Shown here in pieces: positions 16,429 to 61,738 of a DNA stretch of 64,000 bases (position 1 is the stretch's first letter; the number at the start of each line of letters is the position of its first letter). The notes beneath the pieces are model-generated. The model saw only the letters and a list, made by a program, of their open reading frames with translations. It was not told where the DNA came from and made no database searches. This stretch comes from an uncultured Planctomycetia bacterium (GTDB lineage Bacteria; Omnitrophota; Gorgyraeia; JABMRG01): contig CAZWMG010000004.1 in NCBI GenBank assembly GCA_964634945.1, forward strand, positions 52,528 through 116,527. Reading direction: 5' to 3'. Made by a program: the position numbers and the translations under genes.

Positions 16429-16458
16429 AATAGATACTAGGTGCAAAGGAAAAAAAGC

Positions 16459-16514
16459 ATAAAGTATAAAGTATAAAGTATAAAGGATAAAGGATAAAGG
16501 ATAAAGGATAAAGG
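16459..16514 (+). repeat. Tandem heptanucleotide array: (ATAAAGT)x3 then (ATAAAGG)x5
   Basis: Seen directly in the 5' leader of ndk. Confidence 0.9.
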
Positions 16515-16607
16515 TATATGTCTTGATATGGAATAAACAATAGTCCGCAACTTACAACTTAATCGTTACAACTAAACACGAATATAACTTATTACAAAAG
16601 GCAAATA

Positions 16608-24137: not shown

Positions 24138-24329
24138 ATGCCAAAACTCAAGACAAGAAAAGCAGTAAAAAAACGTGTGACAATTACCAAGACAGGGAAG
24201 GCAAAGGCGAAAAAATCATTTTCCGGGCATCTAATGACATCTAAAAACAGAAAACGAAAGCGCAACTTGAAGCAGAAAGCTGTGCTTACAAAGACCGAGT
24301 CTGCTAAGTTGAGGATAATGATTACTTAG
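24138..24329 (+). CDS. rpmI: 50S ribosomal protein L35
   Basis: MPKLKTRKAVKKRV.., 63 aa. Confidence 0.9.
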   Translation: MPKLKTRKAVKKRVTITKTGKAKAKKSFSGHLMTSKNRKRKRNLKQKAVLTKTESAKLRIMIT

Positions 24330-24348
24330 CAGGAGATATAAGTTGTGG

Positions 24349-24457
24349 GTAATTGCTACCCCCGCTGTTTCGCTTTGCGAAACAAAGCGACAGGGGTTAA
24401 TTCATCCCTCTTCTTGCTTGCGCAAGAAAGCAGAGGGGCTCATTAAGGAGACAAATC
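24349..24457 (+). promoter_or_regulatory. Structured leader: hairpin-1 (ends GGGG), TTAATTC, hairpin-2 (CCCTCTTCTTGC..GCAAGAAAGCAGAGGG), then SD AAGGAG. Duplicated upstream of the COG1900 gene (40145..40230).
   Basis: About 60 nt are nearly identical at the two loci. A third variant lies upstream of trkH. Confidence 0.5.
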
Positions 24458-24802
24458 ATGGCAAGAGTAAAACACAGTGTAGCGTCACTAAAAAAACGAA
24501 AGAGGGTCTTGAAAGCCGCCAAGGGTTATGTGGGCGGGCGCAGTAAGCTTTTTAGGACCGCTAAAGAGACGGTTATGCGGGCAGAGGCATATTCTTACAG
24601 GGACAGAAAAGTTAAGAAACGCACTTTTCGTTCTTTGTGGATTGCTAGAATAAGTGCCGCTTGTAAGGTAAATGGCCAGACATATGCGCGCTTTATCAAC
24701 GGCCTAAAGAAGGCTAAGATAGCCCTTGACAGAAAGATGTTAGCAGAGATAGCGGTTTCGCACAAGACTGCCTTTAAGCGCCTCGCGGAGCTTACAAAAT
24801 AG
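24458..24802 (+). CDS. rplT: 50S ribosomal protein L20
   Basis: MARVKHSVASLKKRKRVLK.., 114 aa. Confidence 0.9.
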   Translation: MARVKHSVASLKKRKRVLKAAKGYVGGRSKLFRTAKETVMRAEAYSYRDRKVKKRTFRSLWIARISAACKVNGQTYARFINGLKKAKIALDRKMLAEIAVSHKTAFKRLAELTK

Positions 24803-24954
24803 TTTGCTAGTAATAGCAGAGGAAGTGGATAGTGGGTACCCCGATACCACAAACTTTGTTTGGGTACGGGGTTAATTCGCGCTTGTGAGTTATGTCGTTA
24901 CTTCGACACTCCATAACTCACGCGCTCATGAAAAAAACAAGCACATAATTCCCT

Positions 24955-26319
24955 ATGAGAAAAATCAGGCTACAGCCTTCACAGGTAATAGTTTTAAGCT
25001 TTTTTTTCGTAATCTTAGCAGGCGCTGCATTGCTTAGCTTGCCGCTGTCTACGGCGGGTAACCAGAGCCCCGGAATCATAAATAGCCTTTTTACGGCAAC
25101 AAGCGCTACCTGTGTTACAGGGCTTACGGTCAAAGACACAGGCAGTTTTTTTTCGCCATTTGGCAGGCTAGTAATACTCTGCCTGGTCCAGGCTGGCGGA
25201 CTTGGAATAATGACTTTTTCAACGATGTTCGCTATCTTGTTAGGCAGAAAACTTTCAATATCGCAAAACATGACTATAAAGAGTGCGCTTGGGCATACAG
25301 AGATAGAGGGCTTAAGGCGGCTCATTTTTTATATTATAGCCTTTACATTCAGCGTTGAGGCGATCGGCGCTATAGTGCTTTATTTTAGATGGGTGGCAAC
25401 AACAGGCTGGTCAAAACTGCTTGTAGCCGAGCGCGCGATATTTCACGCGGTCTCAGCTTTTTGTAATGCGGGTTTTTCACTATTCTCATCGAGCTTATCA
25501 GATTTTGCTTCAGATTGGGTTACAATGACCGTAATCGCCGCGTTGATAGTGATAGGAGGCATGGGGTTTATTGTTTTTCTCGATATCCCAAAGCTAAAAT
25601 TCTGGAGAAAAGACAGGCGCCTGATACTTTCTCGTGTAAGCCTGCAGACCAAGATAGTCGTTTTAGTGACACTGCTCTTGATCATAATAGGCGCTCTGGG
25701 CATATACCTCTTGGAAAACAATTCCGCGCTTTATGGAATGGGGCTTAAGGAAAAGGTAACGTCCTGCGCATTTACTTCTATTACACCAAGAACAGCGGGC
25801 TTTAATATCCTTAATACGGCGACACTAAGGCCAGCCACGCTTTTTCTGCTGATTATATTGATGTTTATAGGCGCGTCTCCCGGTTCAACAGGCGGCGGCA
25901 TCAAGACAGTTACCCTTGGTATTGTTCTTGCCGCGTTATATTCGATGTTTCGAAGCAAGGAAAGGATCAGCCTGTTCGGGCGGACAATACCAAAAGATAC
26001 ATATCGCCGCGCGGCGGTCATAATATTTCTCGCTCTTTGTGTTGTCATATGTTCTACGTTTTTGCTCTCAGCAACAGAGACGGTTGCGGCGCAGAGCAGC
26101 CATTATTTTTTAGGCGTACTGTTTGAATCGACTTCCGCTTTTGGCACAGTAGGCCTGTCAACCGGCATTACCCCCAACCTGACGCCTCTTGGGAAAATAA
26201 TAATTATGCTTACTATGTTTGTGGGCCGTGTAGGCCCGCTTACTCTCGCGCTCGCGTTAGCGATGCGCAGGGAAAAACTATCGTTTAGCTATCCTGAAGA
26301 GGCGCTTATGGTGGGGTAA
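24955..26319 (+). CDS. trkH: TrkH/KtrB-family K+ uptake transporter
   Basis: 454 aa polytopic protein with repeated selectivity-filter-like GxG segments (TGLTV, AGFN, GFNI..). Confidence 0.8.
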   Translation: MRKIRLQPSQVIVLSFFFVILAGAALLSLPLSTAGNQSPGIINSLFTATSATCVTGLTVKDTGSFFSPFGRLVILCLVQAGGLGIMTFSTMFAILLGRKLSISQNMTIKSALGHTEIEGLRRLIFYIIAFTFSVEAIGAIVLYFRWVATTGWSKLLVAERAIFHAVSAFCNAGFSLFSSSLSDFASDWVTMTVIAALIVIGGMGFIVFLDIPKLKFWRKDRRLILSRVSLQTKIVVLVTLLLIIIGALGIYLLENNSALYGMGLKEKVTSCAFTSITPRTAGFNILNTATLRPATLFLLIILMFIGASPGSTGGGIKTVTLGIVLAALYSMFRSKERISLFGRTIPKDTYRRAAVIIFLALCVVICSTFLLSATETVAAQSSHYFLGVLFESTSAFGTVGLSTGITPNLTPLGKIIIMLTMFVGRVGPLTLALALAMRREKLSFSYPEEALMVG

Positions 26320-26543
26320 TTTGGGTATTGGTACAAGGATAAAGGCTAAACACTAAATCCTAATATCGAAATCCTAAACAATATCAAATGACCAAAATGC
26401 AAAATTCAAAACAATACGATTTAGCAGAAGGAACATTTGTTGAGAAGCTAAAGCAATGTTTTGAACACTCGATATTGGAATTTTGAATTTGTTTAGAATT
26501 CAGGATTTAGTGCTTAGGATTTAATATTTAAAAGGGAGATAAA

Positions 26544-30390: not shown

Positions 30391-30727
30391 TATCTTGATT
30401 TCATACAAAAATATTGATATAGTAAAAGTGTCCCTGCTGTGTGCGTGGCGCTTTGATGCAACTTTGAGCCAACACCTTTATACCGGGAGCCCGACGTAAC
30501 AAGAGATAATGGCATGCTCTTGATAGCAAAGAGAAGCCTGAATGCTTGGACAGGGCACCCACCTAAATATAAGGGTTCAAAGTCCATCAGTTGCCCGGCA
30601 CGTGCGGGGATTGTTTTTCGTATTGCGTCGTGCGCCTGCCTGCCGGTAGGCAGGTATATCGTATCGCGTGACAATATTAACATAAAATATAAACGCAATA
30701 CGAGTCACTAGTAAACAAAATCATGCC

Positions 30728-32098: not shown

Positions 32099-32146
32099 CA
32101 AGACCGGTTCTCAAGCACAGGTGGTTGTGCTTGAGAACCGGTCTTG
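32099..32146. repeat. 48-nt perfect palindrome (REP-like): CAAGACCGGTTCTCAAGCACA-ggtggt-TGTGCTTGAGAACCGGTCTTG
   Basis: 20-21 bp stem. A near-identical copy (46/48) in inverted orientation lies at 61691..61738. Confidence 0.9.
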
Positions 32147-32186: not shown

Positions 32187-32215
32187 TTGACTTAACCCCA
32201 TATATAGTGTATATA
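32187..32215 (+). promoter_or_regulatory. Promoter (TTGACT, 17 nt, TATATA) for the giant ORF
   Basis: Read directly. Confidence 0.4.
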
Positions 32216-38890: not shown

Positions 38891-39206
38891 TGCTGGGACG
38901 GTCCTAAAGGGGACACCCCTGAGCGCGCTATCACACTGTTTTTTATGTTTTTACCAAACATTCTCAATAAGGAACATAAATTTTTTATTGTATTTTTTTA
39001 TTTAAAGCGCGCCCCTTCTACTTGTTTTCTATTTCCTACTAAAATAGTAATATATTGCCCCTGTTTTTTACTATCAAAGTTGACAAAATGAGTATAATAT
39101 GCTACAGTTGGCACTATGCTTACAACATAGGAAAGCATTAAATGCCTATGTGCATATTTTTAACATTAGATTCTTAACAAAAACCGATAACCGGGCACCG
39201 AAAAAA

Positions 39207-40127
39207 ATGAGCTGTATATATAACGATATAACAGAGACCATAGGTAATACCCCTCTTGTAAGGATATCGAATATAAGTACCTTTGGAGCAAGAGTCCTGG
39301 TAAAACTCGAATCATTCAATCCTCTATCAAGCATAAAAGACAGAATAGGCATTGCTATGATACGAGATGCCGAAAAAAGAGGCCTGCTAAAAAAAGGTGC
39401 AACTATAATCGAGCCTACAAGCGGTAATACGGGTATCGCCTTAGCCTTTGCCGCTGCGGTCAAGGGGTATAGATTGATATTGACAATGCCGGATACTATG
39501 AGCATAGAGCGTCAAAAGCTCCTCAAGTTGATAGGCGCGGAGATAGTGCTTACTCCTGGTGAAAAAGGCATGAAAGGCGCGATTAAAAGAGCAGAAGAGG
39601 TCTTAGAGCAAACCCCTGGGGCATTTATGCCGCAACAATTTAAAAACCCGGCTAATCCACAGATTCATCGTGAGACCACAGCAAAAGAGATATTACAGGA
39701 TACGGAAAGACACGTAGATTTTTTTGTATCCGGCGTTGGTACGGGTGGCACATTGACAGGCATCGGTTCGGTTCTTAAAGAGAATATACCAACAGTAAAG
39801 ATTGTAGCGGTTGAACCAGAGGGTTCAGCTGTTCTTTCAGGTTCAAAGCCCGGGCCGCACAAGATACAGGGCATCGGTGCCGGCTTTATCCCAGAGATAT
39901 TACAAAAAGAGTTGATAGACGAGATTATAGTTGTAAGTAACGCTGATGCTAAGGATATGGCACAAGCCCTCGCCAAGAAAGAAGGGATATTAGCAGGCAT
40001 ATCAAGCGGCGCAGCGCTCTCAGCGGCTTTGAGTATCGCCAAAAGGCGTGATAGCAAGGGAAAGAACATAGTTGTGATCCTGCCTGATACAGGCGAGCGC
40101 TATCTTAGTACAGATCTTTTTGATTAG
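39207..40127 (+). CDS. cysK: Cysteine synthase A (O-acetylserine sulfhydrylase). Start at MSCIYNDITETIGNTPLV; the track ORF begins at 39099.
   Basis: PLP-lysine motif NPLSSIKDR, GTGGT loop, 306 aa. Confidence 0.85.
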   Translation: MSCIYNDITETIGNTPLVRISNISTFGARVLVKLESFNPLSSIKDRIGIAMIRDAEKRGLLKKGATIIEPTSGNTGIALAFAAAVKGYRLILTMPDTMSIERQKLLKLIGAEIVLTPGEKGMKGAIKRAEEVLEQTPGAFMPQQFKNPANPQIHRETTAKEILQDTERHVDFFVSGVGTGGTLTGIGSVLKENIPTVKIVAVEPEGSAVLSGSKPGPHKIQGIGAGFIPEILQKELIDEIIVVSNADAKDMAQALAKKEGILAGISSGAALSAALSIAKRRDSKGKNIVVILPDTGERYLSTDLFD

Positions 40128-40144
40128 ATTTTATTGATAATATA

Positions 40145-40230
40145 TAAAAATCCCTCGCTATTGCTTGGGATTAATTCGCCCCTCTTCTTGCTTTTGCAAG
40201 AAAGCAGAGGGGCTCATTAAGGAGACGATA
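40145..40230 (+). promoter_or_regulatory. Second copy of the hairpin-TTAATTC-hairpin-SD leader, upstream of the COG1900 gene
   Basis: TTAATTCGCCCCTCTTCTTGCTTTTGCAAGAAAGCAGAGGGGCTCATTAAGGAGAC is nearly identical to 24399..24452. Confidence 0.5.
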
Positions 40231-41442
40231 ATGGCAAAGACATATGCCGAGATAAACAAAAAGATAAAACAGGGTAAGGCGGTTGTGGTAACAGCGGAAG
40301 AGGTCATAGGTATAGCGAAAAAAGAGGGTACAAAAAAGGCATCAGAAAGAATAGACGTTGTCACCACAGGGACATTTGGCCCCATGTGTTCTAGCAGTGC
40401 TTATTTTAATACAGGGCATACCAAGCCGAAGATAAAGCTTGGCGGTGGGAGAGCTACATTGAACAATGTTCCTGCTTATGCGGGACTTGCCGCGGCAGAT
40501 CTCTACATAGGTGCTTCAGTTTCAACCGAGGATGATCCTAAAAATAAAGTGTTCCCCGGAAAATTTGAATATGGCGGAGCCCATGTAATAGAGGATCTGG
40601 TAGCGGGCAAGGATATCAAGCTTTCTGCGACAGCCTATGGAACAGACTGTTACCCACGTAAAAAGCTTGATACTTATATCAATATAAAGGATCTTAACGA
40701 AGCGATCCTGTTTAACCCGCGCAATAGTTATCAGAATTATAACGTTGCTGTAAATCTTCATAAGGATAGGGCCATATATACATACATGGGTATACTAAAA
40801 CCCCAACTTGGAAATGCGAATTATTGTTCAGCCGGCCAGCTTTCGCCGCTCTTAAACGACCCATATTACAAGACAATAGGCATCGGCACGAGGATATTCT
40901 TAGCTGGCGGCGAAGGGTATATAGCATGGCATGGCACACAGCATAACCCGGGAGTAAAGCGCGCATCCAATGGCGTTCCAAAGGCACCGGCAGGTACAGT
41001 AGCAATAATAGGTGACCTAAAAGGCATGAAGTCAGAATGGCTGCGCGGAACTTCATTTGAAGGTTATGGAGTTACATTGGTTGTTGGACTTGGCATACCT
41101 ATACCGATACTCAACGAGGAGATGCTCAAATATACTGCGATAAAGGATGAAGATATATACACGCAGATCGTTGATTATTCCAGCGACTACCCAAATGGTG
41201 TATCGCGTTCGCTTGGTGAAGTAAATTACAAAGAGCTCAAGACAGGCAGTATAAAAGTAAAGGGCAAAGATGTGCCTACCGCCTCTTTGTCGAGCTATTC
41301 AAAAGCCAGGTCCATCGCGGAGGAATTAAAAGACTCAATTATAAAAGGCAAGTTCTTCTTAGGTGAGCCGGTCCAGCTGCTTCCTTCTTCGGATGCCGGT
41401 ATTAATTTTAAGCCCTTAAAAGAACGTCCTGTGCAAGATTAA
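40231..41442 (+). CDS. COG1900/DUF39 homocysteine biosynthesis protein (methanogen MA1821-type sulfur-incorporating enzyme)
   Basis: Begins MAKTYAEINKKIKQGKAVVVTAEEV..TTGTFGPMCSSSAYFN. About 400 aa. Adjacent to cysK. Confidence 0.65.
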   Translation: MAKTYAEINKKIKQGKAVVVTAEEVIGIAKKEGTKKASERIDVVTTGTFGPMCSSSAYFNTGHTKPKIKLGGGRATLNNVPAYAGLAAADLYIGASVSTEDDPKNKVFPGKFEYGGAHVIEDLVAGKDIKLSATAYGTDCYPRKKLDTYINIKDLNEAILFNPRNSYQNYNVAVNLHKDRAIYTYMGILKPQLGNANYCSAGQLSPLLNDPYYKTIGIGTRIFLAGGEGYIAWHGTQHNPGVKRASNGVPKAPAGTVAIIGDLKGMKSEWLRGTSFEGYGVTLVVGLGIPIPILNEEMLKYTAIKDEDIYTQIVDYSSDYPNGVSRSLGEVNYKELKTGSIKVKGKDVPTASLSSYSKARSIAEELKDSIIKGKFFLGEPVQLLPSSDAGINFKPLKERPVQD

Positions 41443-43342: not shown

Positions 43343-43538
43343 TAAAAATAAGCAGATATATTGTGTCCGCTTTATTCGCGGGCCAGGGTATTGGTTTGTT
43401 TGCGTAAGCAGACAGAGCACTCAGTGCTTTAATAGTCGCATCTCGCCTTATACGAAAAAAGTTGTAATGGAAAACGGGCGGGAGCTTCAGCAGTTTTATA
43501 CAGACTGCTTTAAACATAGAAAGGAAGAAGGTGTAGCT

Positions 43539-45113
43539 ATGTCAAACAACATGAATCCAATAGTGCTTTCCTTAAGCATTATCGCGATAGCGACGCTGTT
43601 TTTTATGATAGGTTATTTTATCAGTAGCCTGATCAAATCAAAAACACACAAGTTCGCGGGTGAGAAGGCGAAACAGATAGTAGAGCAGGCGCAAAAAGAG
43701 GCTCAAAACTTACGTAAAGAAGTTGAACTTGAGTCAAAGGACCTTAAATTAAAAATACGTTCTGAATTTGAGCAGGAGACAAAGGATACACGACGTGAGA
43801 CAAAAGAAGCGGAGAGAAGGCTTACACAGCGCGAAGAGAATCTCGAGAGAAAAGTCGATCTCTTAGATGGAAAAGAAAAGAAGATAACGCAAAAAGAGAA
43901 TGAGATTATACAGAAGGAACAGAATATCACCAAAAAAGAAGCAGAGCTAAATAGGGCCCTTGAGGAAGAAAGGCAGAAACTGCAGCGTGTTGCCGGGATG
44001 TCATCGGACGAAGCAAAGAAGCTGCTTCTCGTCAGGATGGAGGAGGAGGCAAAGCAGGAAGCCGCTGTTATGCTGAAGAAGCTTGAGGAGCAGACTAAGG
44101 CAGCAGCTACCAAAAAGGCAAGGGATGTAATAAGTCTCGCGATACAGCGTTACGCCGCGGACCACACAGTAGAATCGACAGTAAGTGTTGTAAGCCTTCC
44201 TAGCGATGACATGAAAGGAAGAATCATAGGCAGAGAAGGAAGAAATATACGCGCGTTAGAGGTAGCTACCGGGGTCGATGTTATTGTCGATGACACGCCG
44301 GAAGCTGTTACGCTTTCAGGTTTTGATATAGTAAGGCGTGAGATCGCCAAGCGGACATTAGAACGACTAATAGAAGATGGTAGGATACATCCGGCAAGGA
44401 TAGAAGAGGTTGTTGAGAAGATTAAGAAAGAGATGGAGATAGGCATACGCGAAGAAGGGGAAAAAGCGGCCTTTGACGTTAATATACATGGCCTGCATCC
44501 GGAGATCATAAAACTTCTTGGACGCTTAAAATATAGAACAAGTTATGGACAAAACGCGCTCCAGCATTCCAAGGAGGTCGCGTATATAATGGGCGTTATG
44601 GCGGGTGAGCTTGGCATAGATTTTAATTTCGCCAAACGTATAGGGCTTTTACATGATATTGGTAAGGCGGTAAGCCATGAAGTTGAAGGCGGCCATGCCA
44701 AGATAGGCGCTGATTTGGCGCGCAAATACGGCGAGACAGAAGCGGTAATACATGCCCTGGAGGCGCACCACGAAGACATAGAGGCAAATTCTGTTTTTGC
44801 TGTATTAGTCCAGGCGGCAGACGCGATTAGCGCTACACGCCCGGGCGCAAGGCGAGAGACGCTTGAGACTTATGTTAAGAGACTGGAAAAACTCGAAGGC
44901 ATAGCGGATTCTTTTAAAGGTGTGGAAAAGTCATTTGCTATACAAGCAGGCAGAGAAGTGCGTGTTATTGTCCAGCCTGACAAGATTAACGATCTTCAGT
45001 CAATAAGCATGGCAAGAGATATCAGTAAGAAGGTTGAGGACAATCTACAGTACCCAGGCCAGATAAAGGTAACAGTAATACGCGAGACCCGCGCGACAGA
45101 ATACGCAAAATAA
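43539..45113 (+). CDS. rny: Ribonuclease Y
   Basis: N-terminal TM, long coiled coil, KH domain ([15 protein letters not shown]), HD domain (LLHDIGKA). Confidence 0.9.
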
Positions 45114-46035: not shown

Positions 46036-46189
46036 TAATATAGTTTAATATAAGCAATTTGACAAGGCACAAGGTGTAAGGCGCAAGGCGATTACTGCTA
46101 TCCCAAGCAGCCATCGCGTTATTCTTAGTCTTTGACTATAGATGATAATCTTGCGCCCTGTGCCTAATACCTATTTTCATCATAAAGCT

Positions 46190-47447: not shown

Positions 47448-47753
47448 ATGGCAGAACAAAAATTTGAAGACGCGCTCAATAAACTGGAAAAAATAGTGAG
47501 CGATTTAGAGGACGGGGAGCTTAAGCTGGATGACGCTATTAAAAAATACGAGGAAGGCGTCAAGCTCTCAAGAGTCTGTAATAAAAAATTAAACGAAATT
47601 ACAAAAAAGATAAAAGTGCTTGTAGAGGATGATTCAGGCGATCTGGCGGAAGAAGAGTTCGACGCGCCTACTCTTGCCGCGGATGAGGGTGCGGACAAGG
47701 ATAAGCCGGCACGCAGAAAGAGCCTGCCCAAGGGAGAGAAGTATTTGTTCTAA
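47448..47753 (+). CDS. xseB: Exodeoxyribonuclease VII small subunit (with an acidic C-terminal tail)
   Basis: FEDALNKLEKIVSDLEDGELKLDDAIKKYEEG. Confidence 0.8.
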   Translation: MAEQKFEDALNKLEKIVSDLEDGELKLDDAIKKYEEGVKLSRVCNKKLNEITKKIKVLVEDDSGDLAEEEFDAPTLAADEGADKDKPARRKSLPKGEKYLF

Positions 47754-47808
47754 AAAGGCGCATGTGATAAGGCACAAGGAAAAAGGATAAAGGTTAAAGG
47801 TTAAAAAA

Positions 47809-48636
47809 GTGACAAAAATGAAAAAAGACACATTAAACTATCTTAAAAAAAGAAGAGCGATTATAGATAAGGCATTATCGAGCCTCGTTGTAGCGCCGAA
47901 GGGCAAATCAAAAACAGTATATACAGCTATGAACCACGCCTTAAAAGGCGGTAAAAGAATACGTCCGATACTCTGTTTAGCTTGTGCGGAAGCAGTTGGC
48001 GGCAGGGTAATCGACGCGCTTAAAGTTGCGTGCGCCATAGAATTGACCCATAGTTATTCACTTGTCCATGATGATCTTCCTTGTATGGACAACGACGATT
48101 ACCGCAGAGGGCGTTTAACATGCCATAAAAAATTCGGTACAGCAAACGCGGTATTGGCAGGAGACGCGCTTCTTACATACGCCTTTAATATTTTATGCTT
48201 TGCAACTAAGAGCGCATCTGTTAATATGCAGCTAGTAGAAGTTGTATCACAAGCAGCCGGTATACGCGGCATGATAGGCGGCCAGGTTGCGGATATCGCT
48301 ACCAACAAAAAAAGCCAGGCCATGCAGGAATATATAAATATCCAAAAAACAGGGGCGCTTATCGCGGCATCCTGCAAAATGGGCGCCATTTCAGCGAAGG
48401 CAAGCAAAAAGGATACAGGATTATTATTAAAATTTGGCGAGCATATAGGCATGGCCTTTCAGGTGGTTGATGATATTGTTGATAACGAAGGGCTCTCTTT
48501 AATAATGGGTCAGAGAGACGCATTTGAATACGCGAAAGGCCTGACCATAAGAGCCAAAGCTACAATAGCGGGCCTTGGCAAAAAAGCGGGGCCTCTTCAT
48601 GTAATAGCAGATTTTCTGCTTCATAGAACGCACTGA
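47809..48636 (+). CDS. ispA: (2E,6E)-farnesyl/geranyl diphosphate synthase
   Basis: FARM motif LVHDDLPCMDNDDYRRG and second DDxxD (VVDDIVD). Confidence 0.85.
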   Translation: MTKMKKDTLNYLKKRRAIIDKALSSLVVAPKGKSKTVYTAMNHALKGGKRIRPILCLACAEAVGGRVIDALKVACAIELTHSYSLVHDDLPCMDNDDYRRGRLTCHKKFGTANAVLAGDALLTYAFNILCFATKSASVNMQLVEVVSQAAGIRGMIGGQVADIATNKKSQAMQEYINIQKTGALIAASCKMGAISAKASKKDTGLLLKFGEHIGMAFQVVDDIVDNEGLSLIMGQRDAFEYAKGLTIRAKATIAGLGKKAGPLHVIADFLLHRTH

Positions 48637-50715: not shown

Positions 50716-50808
50716 TTATAATGGATACTAGATGCTGGATGCAAGATGCTAGATACAAGGGTACAAGGCATAGGGCACAAGGAAAAAGGCAAAAGCAAAA
50801 AGGTTAAC

Positions 50809-61690: not shown

Positions 61691-61738
61691 CAAGACCGGT
61701 TCTCAAGCACAACCACCTGTGCTCAAGAACCGGTCTTG
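61691..61738. repeat. Second copy of the 48-nt REP-like palindrome, inverted relative to 32099..32146, with 2 substitutions
   Basis: CAAGACCGGTTCTCAAGCACAACCACCTGTGCTCAAGAACCGGTCTTG. Confidence 0.9.

Follow-up and report, generated by a model that had tools for sequence, protein, structure and literature searches.

The three structured leaders that precede rplT, trkH and a homocysteine-synthesis gene (HcyBio, COG1900) in the 64-kb window, that is, the whole stretch of DNA analysed here, are very probably decayed or fossil non-coding miniature transposable elements (MITEs) of a single family. The repeat itself, its absence from orthologous sites, a target duplication with the matching empty site, dispersal, insertion in both orientations and nesting were all observed. 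MITEs are defined by terminal inverted repeats (TIRs), target duplications, the lack of a transposase gene, stem-loops at the RNA level and the existence of empty and filled sites, with occasional in-frame fusion to ORFs (PMC3184786). The element described here is shorter than about 300 bp and holds no transposase gene, and both target-site duplication and filled and empty orthologous sites were found for it. The family seems to be undescribed and belongs to a phylum known from metagenomes alone; the literature search returned no Omnitrophota-specific description of such an element.

An earlier note on this DNA reported about 60 near-identical nucleotides before rplT and the COG1900 gene. Alignment bears this out, as positions 24393-24452 and 40167-40226 form a 60-nt direct repeat with 55 of 60 identical positions. 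The 47-nt 3' part of the repeat was matched twice at up to two mismatches and never in 100 shuffles, and exact GGGRTTAATTC occurs at only three positions of the window (24393, 24868 and 40167). With filters off, a covariance model derived from members of the family and run on the window gave 99.9 bits at rplT, 62.5 bits at HcyBio and 15.1 bits at trkH (E about 0.01), with no other window site above noise. The sequence upstream of trkH, previously described as a variant, is accordingly recovered as a diverged third copy with the same start and an unrelated second hairpin (type B). One-mismatch matches to GGGGTTAAGTC / GGGGTTACTTC at 32189 and 61622 were set aside as chance; the one at 32189 overlaps a promoter-like TTGACT (-35).

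RNAfold predicts a first hairpin, a single-stranded UUAAUUC, a bulged second hairpin and a free Shine-Dalgarno sequence (SD), with whole-spacer z-scores of -2.2 for rplT, -4.0 for HcyBio and -3.9 for trkH. This is the previously proposed layout of hairpin, TTAATTC, hairpin and SD, with the correction that hairpin 2 is longer than described. Its base pairs as TTAAT...ATTAA around a conserved 2x2 UC/UC internal loop, which makes TTAATTC the 5' strand of the basal stem rather than a free linker. Compensatory changes were found among copies in this basal stem and also in hp1, where the rplT copy reads CUUCGC/GCGAAG and metagenome copies UUUCGC/GCGAAA. Such changes fit an RNA function and, equally, a requirement for a DNA hairpin.

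Table 1. Positions of the element copies and neighbouring genes in the window.
Feature	Position	Strand	Basis or remark
rpmI	24138-24329		Pfam confirms call
rplT copy of element	24332..24443	+	nhmmer, covariance model, absence from relatives' spacers
hp1 of rplT copy (CCCCGCTGTTTCGCTTTGCGAAACAAAGCGACAGGGG)	24360..24396	+	folds, compensatory changes
Palindromic core hp2A of rplT copy (CCCTCT TCTTGC TTGC GCAAGA AAGC AGAGGG)	24406..24437	+	
TAA (presumed right target duplication), then native GGAG SD, before rplT	24444..24450	+	
rplT	24458-24802	+	Pfam confirms call; ATG at 24458
trkH copy of element	24800..24929	+	inside last rplT codons; right end GCTCAT
trkH	24955-26319		Pfam confirms call
PALP enzyme	39099-40127		Pfam confirms call
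HcyBio copy of element	40150..40217	+	covariance model, absence in L022/L023
TAA, then native GGAG(AC) SD, before HcyBio	40218..40224	+	
HcyBio	40231-41442	+	Pfam confirms call; ATG at 40231

The window copies measure 68-130 nt, and none of the three has an intact left end (Table 1). The rplT copy is 5'-truncated and retains the 3' arm of arm 1, hp1, the linker, hp2 and the right terminal repeat GCTCAT; an nhmmer profile of full-length copies aligned from position 28 to 149 of 151 with 24332-24449 (E 9e-21). Its right junction, GCTCAT-TAA-GGAG, has the same form as that of metagenome locus L042, for which the empty site is known, and relatives carry (T/G)AAGGAG at an equal distance from the rplT ATG. 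The trkH copy is composed of a decayed 5' part, hp1 at 24839-24871, the linker TTAATTCGC and a type-B hp2 at 24879-24925, and BLAST found type-B homologues of it in L022 and L030. At this locus L20 has 114 aa, compared with 120 aa in five relatives, and the alignment ends after ...ELTK. The HcyBio copy consists of a short hp1 (40150-40171), the linker, the hp2A core (40179-40212) and the right end GCTCAT, and L030 joins a short hp1 of this type to a type-B hp2. In both L022 and L023, which lack the element, AAGGAGAC stands at an equal distance from the HcyBio ATG.

The names attached to its closest homologues place the organism in Candidatus Omnitrophota. The orthologous spacers of relatives were compared along the gene order thrS-infC-rpmI-rplT-trkH-trkA-pheST...PALP-HcyBio, in which flanking proteins are 85-92% identical. 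The element sequence was absent from the rplT operon in six related loci. The rpmI-rplT spacer is 28 nt long and free of it in L024, L025/L026, L028/L029 and L030, and the rplT-trkH spacer is reduced to 6-7 nt in L024, L028/L029 and L030. Between PALP and HcyBio, L023 has 29 nt and L022 has 138 nt of unrelated sequence, both without the element. All relatives lacking it keep the AAGGAG SD. Copies do occur elsewhere in these relatives: one of type B in the spacer between pheT and an AAA-ATPase gene of L022 and two in tRNA/cupin spacers of L030, all three antisense to the flanking genes, together with a further variant before trkA in L031 that ends in ...GGCCTCAT-TAA-GGAGAC. Filled and empty orthologous sites were thus paired at four positions, namely rpmI/rplT, rplT/trkH and PALP/HcyBio (window versus L022-L030) and Ddl-like/KamA (L042 versus L075).

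L042 comes from a scan of metagenomes for the hairpin core with the pattern CTCTTCTTGCNNNNGCAAGAAAGCAGAG, for which chance matches were estimated at far below 1. The 34-nt core was found in 42 contigs and 33 distinct flank contexts, and a full-length element of about 140 nt (range 139-191 nt) at 5-6 loci. One metagenome, Ga0105164, accounts for five loci (L041, L042, L043, L050 and L067), which differ in location and all carry the complete element with its three hairpins. The element starts with ATGA(A/G)NCC and ends with GGNCTCAT; at five loci these termini are complementary at 6-7 of 8 positions, which makes them putative terminal inverted repeats, short and imperfect. Between them, three hairpin arms are set in short related inverted 8-9-mers (AATGAAGCC / GGCTGAATT / AATTCGCC / GGCTCATT). 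A 3-bp target, T(A/G)A, is duplicated at the flanks. At L042 the filled site reads ...GCATCA TAA (ATGAAACCC...GGGGGCTCAT) TAA AGGAGGGG..ATG, and in L075, which is 85% identical to it, the empty site reads ...GCATCC TAA AGGAGGGCAGAGCATG, where the single TAA closes the Ddl-like gene upstream as its stop codon. The L067 element is flanked by TGA/TGA and that of L043 by TAA/TAA, whereas the two triplets at L046 and at L049 are unlike each other (TAA versus TGA).

The genes downstream of the copies are unrelated and encode L20, HcyBio, TrkH, a ROK/MarR regulator, a KamA-like radical-SAM enzyme, a PhoU-like DUF47 protein, a PIG-L deacetylase and hypothetical proteins. The nearest named KamA homologues of contigs with full-length copies are from Verrucomicrobiota (64% identical). 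The third arm is either the 34-nt palindromic core hp2A, as at rplT and HcyBio, or the unrelated hairpin hp2B, as at trkH, and the asymmetric interiors of hp1 and hp2A were found in both orientations. Among about 13 distinct modules, eight lie in sense orientation directly before an SD and ATG, more than random insertion would give; this excess may reflect a target preference, selection for a useful leader, or both. In the roughly 440 kb scanned, no transposase gene adjoined any copy, and no matching pair of ends 0.06-4 kb apart was found besides those of the short elements.

On the MITE reading, the element inserts at TAA or TGA; in tight operons the target is typically a stop codon, or else a TAA that immediately precedes the GGAGG of the next gene. 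The left copy of the duplication then leaves the upstream gene its stop codon, and the right copy leaves the native SD and its spacing undisturbed. Sense copies therefore come to resemble a designed series of hairpin, TTAATTC, hairpin, SD and ATG. The hairpin arms are interchangeable. All three window copies are 5'-truncated or decayed, and the trkH copy landed in the last rplT codons, shortening L20 by 6 residues. Mobilisation may have occurred in trans through a DDE transposase of the IS5/PIF-Harbinger kind, as the 3-bp T-N-A duplication suggests; 3-bp TWA/TNA duplications are typical of that superfamily (PMC4482050). Because the copies are co-transcribed, their hairpins are best regarded as mostly neutral passengers of the mRNA that may incidentally change stability, processing or coupling of neighbouring cistrons. 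Any such effect of the element is secondary and putative.

Some features would also suit a dedicated cis-regulatory RNA (a riboswitch, a ribosomal-protein operator or a protein-binding leader) whose regulon includes rplT, HcyBio and trkH. Sixty nucleotides are near-identical at two loci, the conserved two-hairpin fold is stable and adjoins the SD, and an alternative pairing of the hp1 GGGG with the hp2 CCCU, with a predicted AGGGGTTAATTCATCCCT stem-loop, is available at rplT and HcyBio. An attenuator built on this pairing was rejected, as the pairing is impossible in the trkH and type-B copies. Moreover, the core also lies within ORFs, an rRNA and a riboswitch. The modular cis-regulatory RNA or protein-binding leader put forward in the earlier note is rendered highly improbable by the element-free spacers of close relatives, the target duplication with its empty site, the antisense copies and the unrelated downstream genes, which also dispose of a common regulon. 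The same note listed a small mobile repeat as another option, and the duplication, the empty site and the dispersal speak for that one. Its argument against an L20 operator or a SAM riboswitch holds as well: Rfam 15 has no family that matches the element at gathering score or at E<=1, apart from generic hairpin noise from miRNA models; the sequence is missing from the rplT operons of relatives, and the L022 and L023 spacers before HcyBio are free of it. A lack of further copies and of covariation had been named as grounds for abandoning the regulatory reading. Both further copies and compensatory changes were found, but in a hairpin-forming transposable element they are no sign of a regulatory RNA.

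A milder form of the functional argument accepts arrival by transposition and holds that sense copies abutting an SD were kept for useful mRNA hairpins. Once RNase Y or RNase III has cut the transcript, for instance, a hairpin at the 5' end may shield the downstream cistron; alternatively, it may serve to insulate the SD and thus to uncouple rplT from rpmI. The eight sense modules share ...GCTCATT(A/G)AAGGAGG-N5-8-ATG, the SD is unpaired in predicted folds, and the basal stem with its 2x2 UC/UC loop is conserved with compensatory changes. The lineage also has an RNase Y gene (PF12072 in L023, with a syntenic ORF at 43467-45113 of the window), and promoter-like -10 boxes lie just 5' of the element in L067, L046 and L049, which would place it in the 5' UTR there. 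However, targeting of TAA beside GGAGG, together with the few other harmless sites in spacers of 13-28 nt, explains the SD adjacency with no need for function. In relatives these genes are presumably expressed with no element before them, the L022 and L030 copies are antisense and the L043 copy has no SD. Exaptation of this kind is unlikely.

The hp2A core also occurs on its own, and in this respect it behaves as selfish DNA. It stands alone in about two dozen contexts, where it often caps a longer host hairpin (L044, L051, L061 and L063). A 23S rRNA helix carries it in the terminal loop and an FMN riboswitch in a variable loop. Transposase and integrase genes contain it too, and it lies in frame both in the CTP synthase GATase domain and in MurD, where it adds about 28 residues between residues 260 and 266 of PDB 3lk7. 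In L056, one core is nested in another copy of itself. Its interior, like that of hp1, takes both orientations between identical flanks when L042/L067 are compared with L046/L049, and L043 with L042. Several stand-alone cores lie between short direct repeats (ACTTT, ACTCAT).

These solitary cores raise the question of a palindrome similar to REP/REPIN or RPE sequences, which would move by a single-strand (HUH/RAYT-type) or other non-DDE route, at least as far as the core is concerned, spread alone into hairpin tips and be merely nested in the larger element. The exact placement in the terminal loops of the 23S helix and the FMN riboswitch agrees with this, as do self-nesting, the two orientations of hp2A and hp1 interiors between identical flanks and the in-frame location in ORFs, which recalls the RPEs of Rickettsia (PMC3184786). 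Against it, the GTAG or CGTC tag that defines REP palindromes (PMC3733652) was absent from the flanks of all 33 core contexts, and no Y1/RAYT transposase gene occurred among the ORFs scanned. The direct repeats at stand-alone cores and the 3-bp duplication of the full element point instead to cut-and-paste movement. Both the single-strand route and an independent spread of this REP-like type are quite unlikely, and they concern the core, not the origin of the 60-nt repeat of the window. It is conceivable, though on balance doubtful, that the 34-nt core (CCCCTCT-TCTTGCTTTCGCAAGAAAGC-AGAGGGG) is itself the mobile unit, with an undescribed mode of movement and a preference for the tips of existing hairpins. 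If it is independently mobile and nested in a MITE that targets TAA-GGAGG, unrelated genes would repeatedly be supplied with structured 5' leaders. Such leaders would then be spread across uncultivated Omnitrophota and PVC-group bacteria as raw material for new cis-regulatory RNAs.

On this view, the tips that it occupies would be those of MITE arms, the 23S rRNA helix, the FMN riboswitch stem, terminators and another core. It would persist in frame within essential genes and flip its orientation between its 7-9-bp arms. Whichever strand is read, a GNRA-capped hairpin would form from its two overlapping inner palindromes.

Among known systems, the full element is closest in its features to bacterial MITEs such as Correia/NEMIS of Neisseria, ERIC/IRU of enterobacteria and RUP of pneumococcus (reviewed in PMC3184786 and PMC10969869). 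Shared traits include a length of 100-200 nt, no coding capacity, putative TIRs, a short target duplication, filled and empty sites, intergenic or intercistronic location in both orientations, co-transcription and long stem-loops. Correia elements duplicate TA, and not the 3-bp T(A/G)A duplicated here. The body of the element, unlike theirs, is assembled as a mosaic from three exchangeable hairpin arms instead of forming one long hairpin, and the element is strongly associated with the TAA-GGAGG junction. With IS5/PIF-Harbinger (PHIS) and Tourist-like MITEs it shares a 3-bp T-N-A/T-W-A duplication in AT-rich targets (PMC4482050); this tie consists of the duplication alone, with neither a transposase nor a matching long element found, and it is a lead rather than an assignment of membership. 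The core resembles RPEs in lying in frame in protein genes, in RNA genes and in intergenic DNA (PMC3184786), but RPEs are 105-146 nt long and the core only about 34 nt, the phyla are different, and the core occupies hairpin tips and flips its orientation.

The mosaic of short imperfect palindromes, conserved linkers, alternating orientation and placement in transcribed extragenic DNA within operons are reminiscent of REP/BIME sequences. REPs differ by having no target duplication and by their GTAG/CGTC tag and RAYT genes (PMC3733652), and they are strictly extragenic, whereas the core also enters coding sequence and RNA genes. In its position, the element can further be set beside known intercistronic repeats and leaders. 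MIRUs are small repeats found between the cistrons of operons; they are oriented with transcription and touch the flanking stop and start signals. The element likewise lies in intercistronic spacers at the stop and start signals of its neighbours, but MIRUs are tandem-repeat units with small coupled ORFs. The L20 leader (RF00558) and the E. coli L20 operator are also structured RNAs of the infC-rpmI-rplT operon; the element differs from them by its location between rpmI and rplT rather than upstream of infC or rpmI, by the missing Rfam match, by its absence in close relatives and by its occurrence before unrelated genes.

Recognition of the family removes a tempting false positive, as the SD-adjacent leader of ribosomal-protein and sulfur-metabolism genes would be transposon debris and no signal of a regulon. 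The family would also explain the variation in length of intercistronic spacers, 6 to about 480 nt, among close relatives with compact genomes. Its insertion at the junction of stop codon and SD breaks neither signal. The L20 cut by six residues and the core tolerated in 23S rRNA, a riboswitch and essential enzymes represent natural experiments in tolerance, and also in the one-step origin of structured 5' UTRs.

Several other readings were considered and discarded. An RNase E/Y processing module of the type hairpin, AU-rich stretch, hairpin does not fit as the primary explanation, as UUAAU is the paired foot of hairpin 2 and the copies in relatives are antisense. A mimic of the tRNA T-arm (GGGG-TTCAATT-C...) fails on its 3' side, which is not complementary. 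A translational-coupling ORF that would begin with the ATG of the left repeat is open only in the near-identical 140-nt copies of L042, L049 and L067 but broken in L043 and L046. A scan of genome contigs for AAGAAAGCAGAGGGGCTCAT gave 21 matches, none with the element, and all are a conserved coding motif, read from the flanking codons as (K/E)ESRGAH, which is reminiscent of SdhA/NadB-type flavoproteins and may belong to them.

As an earlier note had described from the sequence alone, a stretch of about 60 nt recurs upstream of rplT and of HcyBio, the homocysteine-synthesis (COG1900) gene. The two copies form a direct repeat, identical at 55/60 positions. The rplT copy stops 5 nt short of the start codon and the HcyBio copy 4 nt short. 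The 47-nt 3' part occurs twice at ≤2 mismatches and in none of 100 dinucleotide-preserving shuffles, and exact GGGRTTAATTC is found in the window only at these two sites and before trkH. Pfam confirms the gene names used here (thrS, infC, rpmI, rplT, trkH, trkA and pheS; the PALP enzyme gene directly upstream of HcyBio, HcyBio itself, and EamA). RNAfold reproduces the layout that had been proposed, with a first hairpin (hp1), UUAAUUC, a bulged second hairpin (hp2, predicted at about -17 to -24 kcal/mol) and a free Shine-Dalgarno (SD) sequence. The trkH copy shares this start and, again as noted, carries a different second hairpin (hp2B), unrelated to the 34-nt palindromic core (hp2A) of the other two. 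TTAATTC is indeed present between the hairpins, but it is not merely a spacer: in an alignment of four hp2B copies (19 pairs, 4 with compensatory changes), TTAAT pairs with ATTAA as the foot of hairpin 2, enclosing a conserved 2x2 UC/UC loop.

Coordinates of features in the window and in comparison contigs
Feature	Sequence	Position	Strand
60-nt repeat, rplT copy	window	24393-24452	
rplT start codon	window	24458	
60-nt repeat, HcyBio copy	window	40167-40226	
HcyBio start codon	window	40231	
GGGRTTAATTC (rplT, trkH, HcyBio)	window	24393, 24868, 40167	
Site compared for trkH-trkA placement	window	24803-24954	
6S (SsrS) RNA	window	30428-30614	+
48-nt palindrome	window	32099-32146, 61691-61738	
7-nt unit runs	window	16448-16529, 26330-26357, 46057-46088, 47748-47815, 50772-50804	
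Tandem ~68-nt array	L025	1760-1969	
Tandem ~68-nt array	L026	1751-2233	
tRNA segments	L030	5041-5743, 6161-6863	
ATGTAGGGGTTCAATTTATTGAA(C/G)CC	L052	about 2166	-
ATGTAGGGGTTCAATTTATTGAA(C/G)CC	L073	about 903	+

The covariance model that the earlier note had proposed was derived from seven hp1/hp2A modules, with 30 pairs of which 6 show compensatory changes. Run on the window with filters off, it recovered the rplT (99.9 bits), HcyBio (62.5 bits) and trkH (15.1 bits, E about 0.01) sites, with nothing else above noise; in 119 kb of relatives' loci it gave no credible match. The only Rfam 15 families identified in the window were 6S RNA and, at five loci, tRNA; none matched the element even at E≤1. 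Further copies and covariation thus both exist; hairpin-forming mobile elements also display them.

The choice offered between a regulatory leader and a small mobile repeat was addressed in relatives with the same gene order and flanking proteins 80-92% identical; sources assign the HcyBio and TrkH homologues to Candidatus Omnitrophota. The rpmI-rplT spacer measures 128 nt in the window versus 28 nt in the relatives' contigs L024, L025/L026, L028/L029 and L030, where it reads TAG-CAGnnn(n)GGTTTAyyk-AAGGAG-N6-ATG without hairpins; L031/L032 hold 154 nt of unrelated sequence at the same hot spot. The rplT-trkH spacer is 152 nt versus 6-7 nt in L024, L028/L029 and L030. PALP and HcyBio are 103 nt apart in the window and 29 nt apart in L023; L022 has unrelated sequence of 138 nt there, and L022 and L023 alike retain AAGGAGAC. 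L20 has 114 aa in the window and 120 aa in the relatives. It ends directly after ...ELTK, and a relic of the old rplT 3' end (AAAAACAAGC..ATAATT..TATG) lies 3' of the trkH insert, indicating that this copy inserted within the last rplT codons.

The same rplT-trkH spacer in L025 and L026, from two samples, holds another insert, a tandem array of a ~68-nt unit (GCGAGAAACCGTTAGCATAAAGAATAGCGCAAGTGAGGTTCCTCGCAGATTGGCATAGATTTGATCCT) present 3 and 7 times, respectively, though the TrkH protein is identical. This array is a fast-changing minisatellite at the hot spot that holds the trkH element in the window. Throughout the clade, trkH-trkA lies between rplT and pheS, interrupting the classical infC-rpmI-rplT-pheST arrangement.

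When the three window elements were compared with relatives' loci by BLAST, trkH-type copies (hp1, GGGGTTAATTCGC, hp2B, GCTCAT) emerged between pheT and an AAA-ATPase gene in L022 and, twice, in tRNA/cupin spacers upstream of thrS in L030, all antisense to the genes around them. In one L030 copy, an hp2B is joined to the short hp1 known from the window's HcyBio copy, so the arms are exchangeable modules. A further variant, ending ...GGCCTCAT-TAA-GGAGAC, directly precedes trkA in L031. Each L030 copy adjoins, in reverse orientation, one of two near-identical ~200-nt segments that each contain a tRNA gene and, at ~100 nt from it, its first ~17 nt once more (GGGCGGTTAGCTCAGTT). Partial tRNA duplications of this kind are left behind by integrative elements.

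Scanning metagenome contigs with CTCTTCTTGCNNNNGCAAGAAAGCAGAG (24 specified bases) returned 42 contigs in 33 distinct flank contexts. In L042, L067, L049, L043 and L046, and in L041 with a different hp1, a longer element occurs that has the bipartite module as its 3' two-thirds and the layout T(A/G)A, ATGAAGCC, arm 1 (CAGACTTACG...CGTAAGTCTG), GGCTGAATTTA, hp1, TTCAATTCGC, hp2A, GCTCAT, T(A/G)A, AGGAGG, N5-8 and ATG. Plain copies measure 139-140 nt, and those with further nested palindromes 162-191 nt. The ends, ATGA(A/G)NCC and GGNCTCAT, are imperfect inverted repeats, and the full-length member resembles a MITE, or miniature inverted-repeat transposable element. In a full-length profile of 151 positions, the rplT copy aligns to 28-149 (E 9e-21) and the HcyBio copy to 90-149; both copies are 5'-truncated derivatives.

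An empty site clarifies the target. The KamA-like gene downstream of the L042 element has an 85% identical homologue in L075/L076, preceded by GGCATCC-TAA-AGGAGGGCAGAGC-ATG, where TAA is the stop codon of a Ddl-like gene. The filled L042 site reads GCATCA-TAA-(140-nt element)-TAA-AGGAGGGGGGAGA-ATG. Flanking triplets are TGA/TGA in L067, TAA/TAA in L043 and TAA/TGA in L046 and L049. Both GCTCAT-TAA-GGAGAC right junctions in the window have the L042 form, and the relatives' empty sites read (T/G)AA-GGAG or TAA-AGGAGAC. Insertion occurs at a TAA or TGA abutting GGAGG, restoring a stop codon on the left and keeping the native SD and its spacing on the right, which accounts for the apparent SD module. 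Duplications of 3 bp with the form TWA/TNA typify the PIF-Harbinger/IS5 superfamily (PMC4482050). A DDE transposase of the IS5/Harbinger kind probably moved the copies in trans. The ~440 kb searched contained no autonomous partner.

Genes directly downstream of sense copies encode L20, HcyBio and TrkH in the window and, elsewhere, a ROK/MarR regulator, a KamA-like radical-SAM enzyme, a PhoU-like DUF47 protein, a PIG-L deacetylase and two hypotheticals; they share no regulon, and a common regulon is rejected. Given these unrelated genes, the antisense copies and the absence from relatives' orthologous sites, the reading as a regulatory leader is rejected. That absence, the TAA duplication with its L075/L076 empty site, and the dispersed copies support the mobile repeat. 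The three leaders are thus insertions, specific to this lineage, of a repeat that is dispersed, modular and rich in hairpins. The repeat belongs to the MITE/small dispersed palindromic repeat class, and its intact members show both inverted ends and duplication of T(A/G)A. Its TAA|GGAGG target and mosaic, flip-flopping arms are of particular interest. Copies may persist at stop/SD junctions both as the target and as among the few harmless sites in 6-30-nt spacers. They would be passengers in mRNA, where co-transcription with thrS-infC-rpmI-rplT-trkH and PALP-HcyBio would place stable hairpins directly 5' of an accessible SD. Such hairpins could lend stability to the downstream cistron, introduce a processing site or weaken the coupling of rpmI and rplT.

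The hp2A core behaves as selfish DNA, in the manner known from small repeats such as Rickettsia palindromic elements; like the latter, it lies in frame in genes and in RNA genes (PMC3184786). Its tolerance in rRNA, a riboswitch and essential enzymes is a further point of interest. One copy occupies precisely the terminal loop of a 23S rRNA helix (around 1890-1900 of the LSU model), and one a variable loop of an FMN riboswitch, which nevertheless scores 110 bits. Two lie in frame in proteins: in MurD, adding ~28 residues between 260 and 266 of PDB 3lk7, and in the CTP synthase GATase domain, where the core is nested within a second core. Transposase and integrase genes carry it internally or at their end. 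Frequently a longer host hairpin is capped by it (L044, L051, L061, L063). The asymmetric interiors of hp2A and hp1 are found in either orientation where the flanks are identical (L042/L067 versus L046/L049; L043 versus L042). Each interior comprises two overlapping palindromes, in hp2A UCUUGC/GCAAGA and GCUUUC/GAAAGC, so a hairpin that has a 4-nt bulge and, in one of the registers, a GNRA loop can form on either strand. Direct repeats of ACTTT or ACTCAT flank several stand-alone cores. Two different rve-type transposase ORFs (L034/L065 versus L039/L053) share the downstream sequence, joined as ...TAAAGT-(hp2A core)-AAAGTGAAAATACCAGAAT..., where the core marks a recombination or insertion junction common to different IS-like genes.

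Other repeats and RNAs were also observed. The 48-nt near-perfect palindrome (CAAGACCGGTTCTCAAGCAC-loop-GTGCTTGAGAACCGGTCTTG) has its central 8 nt reverse-complemented between copies (AGGTGGTT versus AACCACCT), with a promoter-like TTGAC(T/A) ~50-60 nt or less after each. It represents a second palindromic repeat family in this genome that likewise shows flip-flop; the copies are possibly bidirectional terminators. Intergenic runs of AAAGTAT/AAAGGAT carry repeated AAGGA motifs, whose A(A/N)GGA pattern recalls CsrA/RsmE-type binding motifs. The 6S RNA (Rfam RF00013, 87.6 bits, full length) lies just downstream of pheT. L052 and L073, otherwise unrelated contigs that both carry the hp2A core, share the ATGTAGGGGTTCAATTTATTGAA(C/G)CC motif, which forms a small hairpin (GGTTCAAT..ATTGAACC) and may represent a further family of small repeats.
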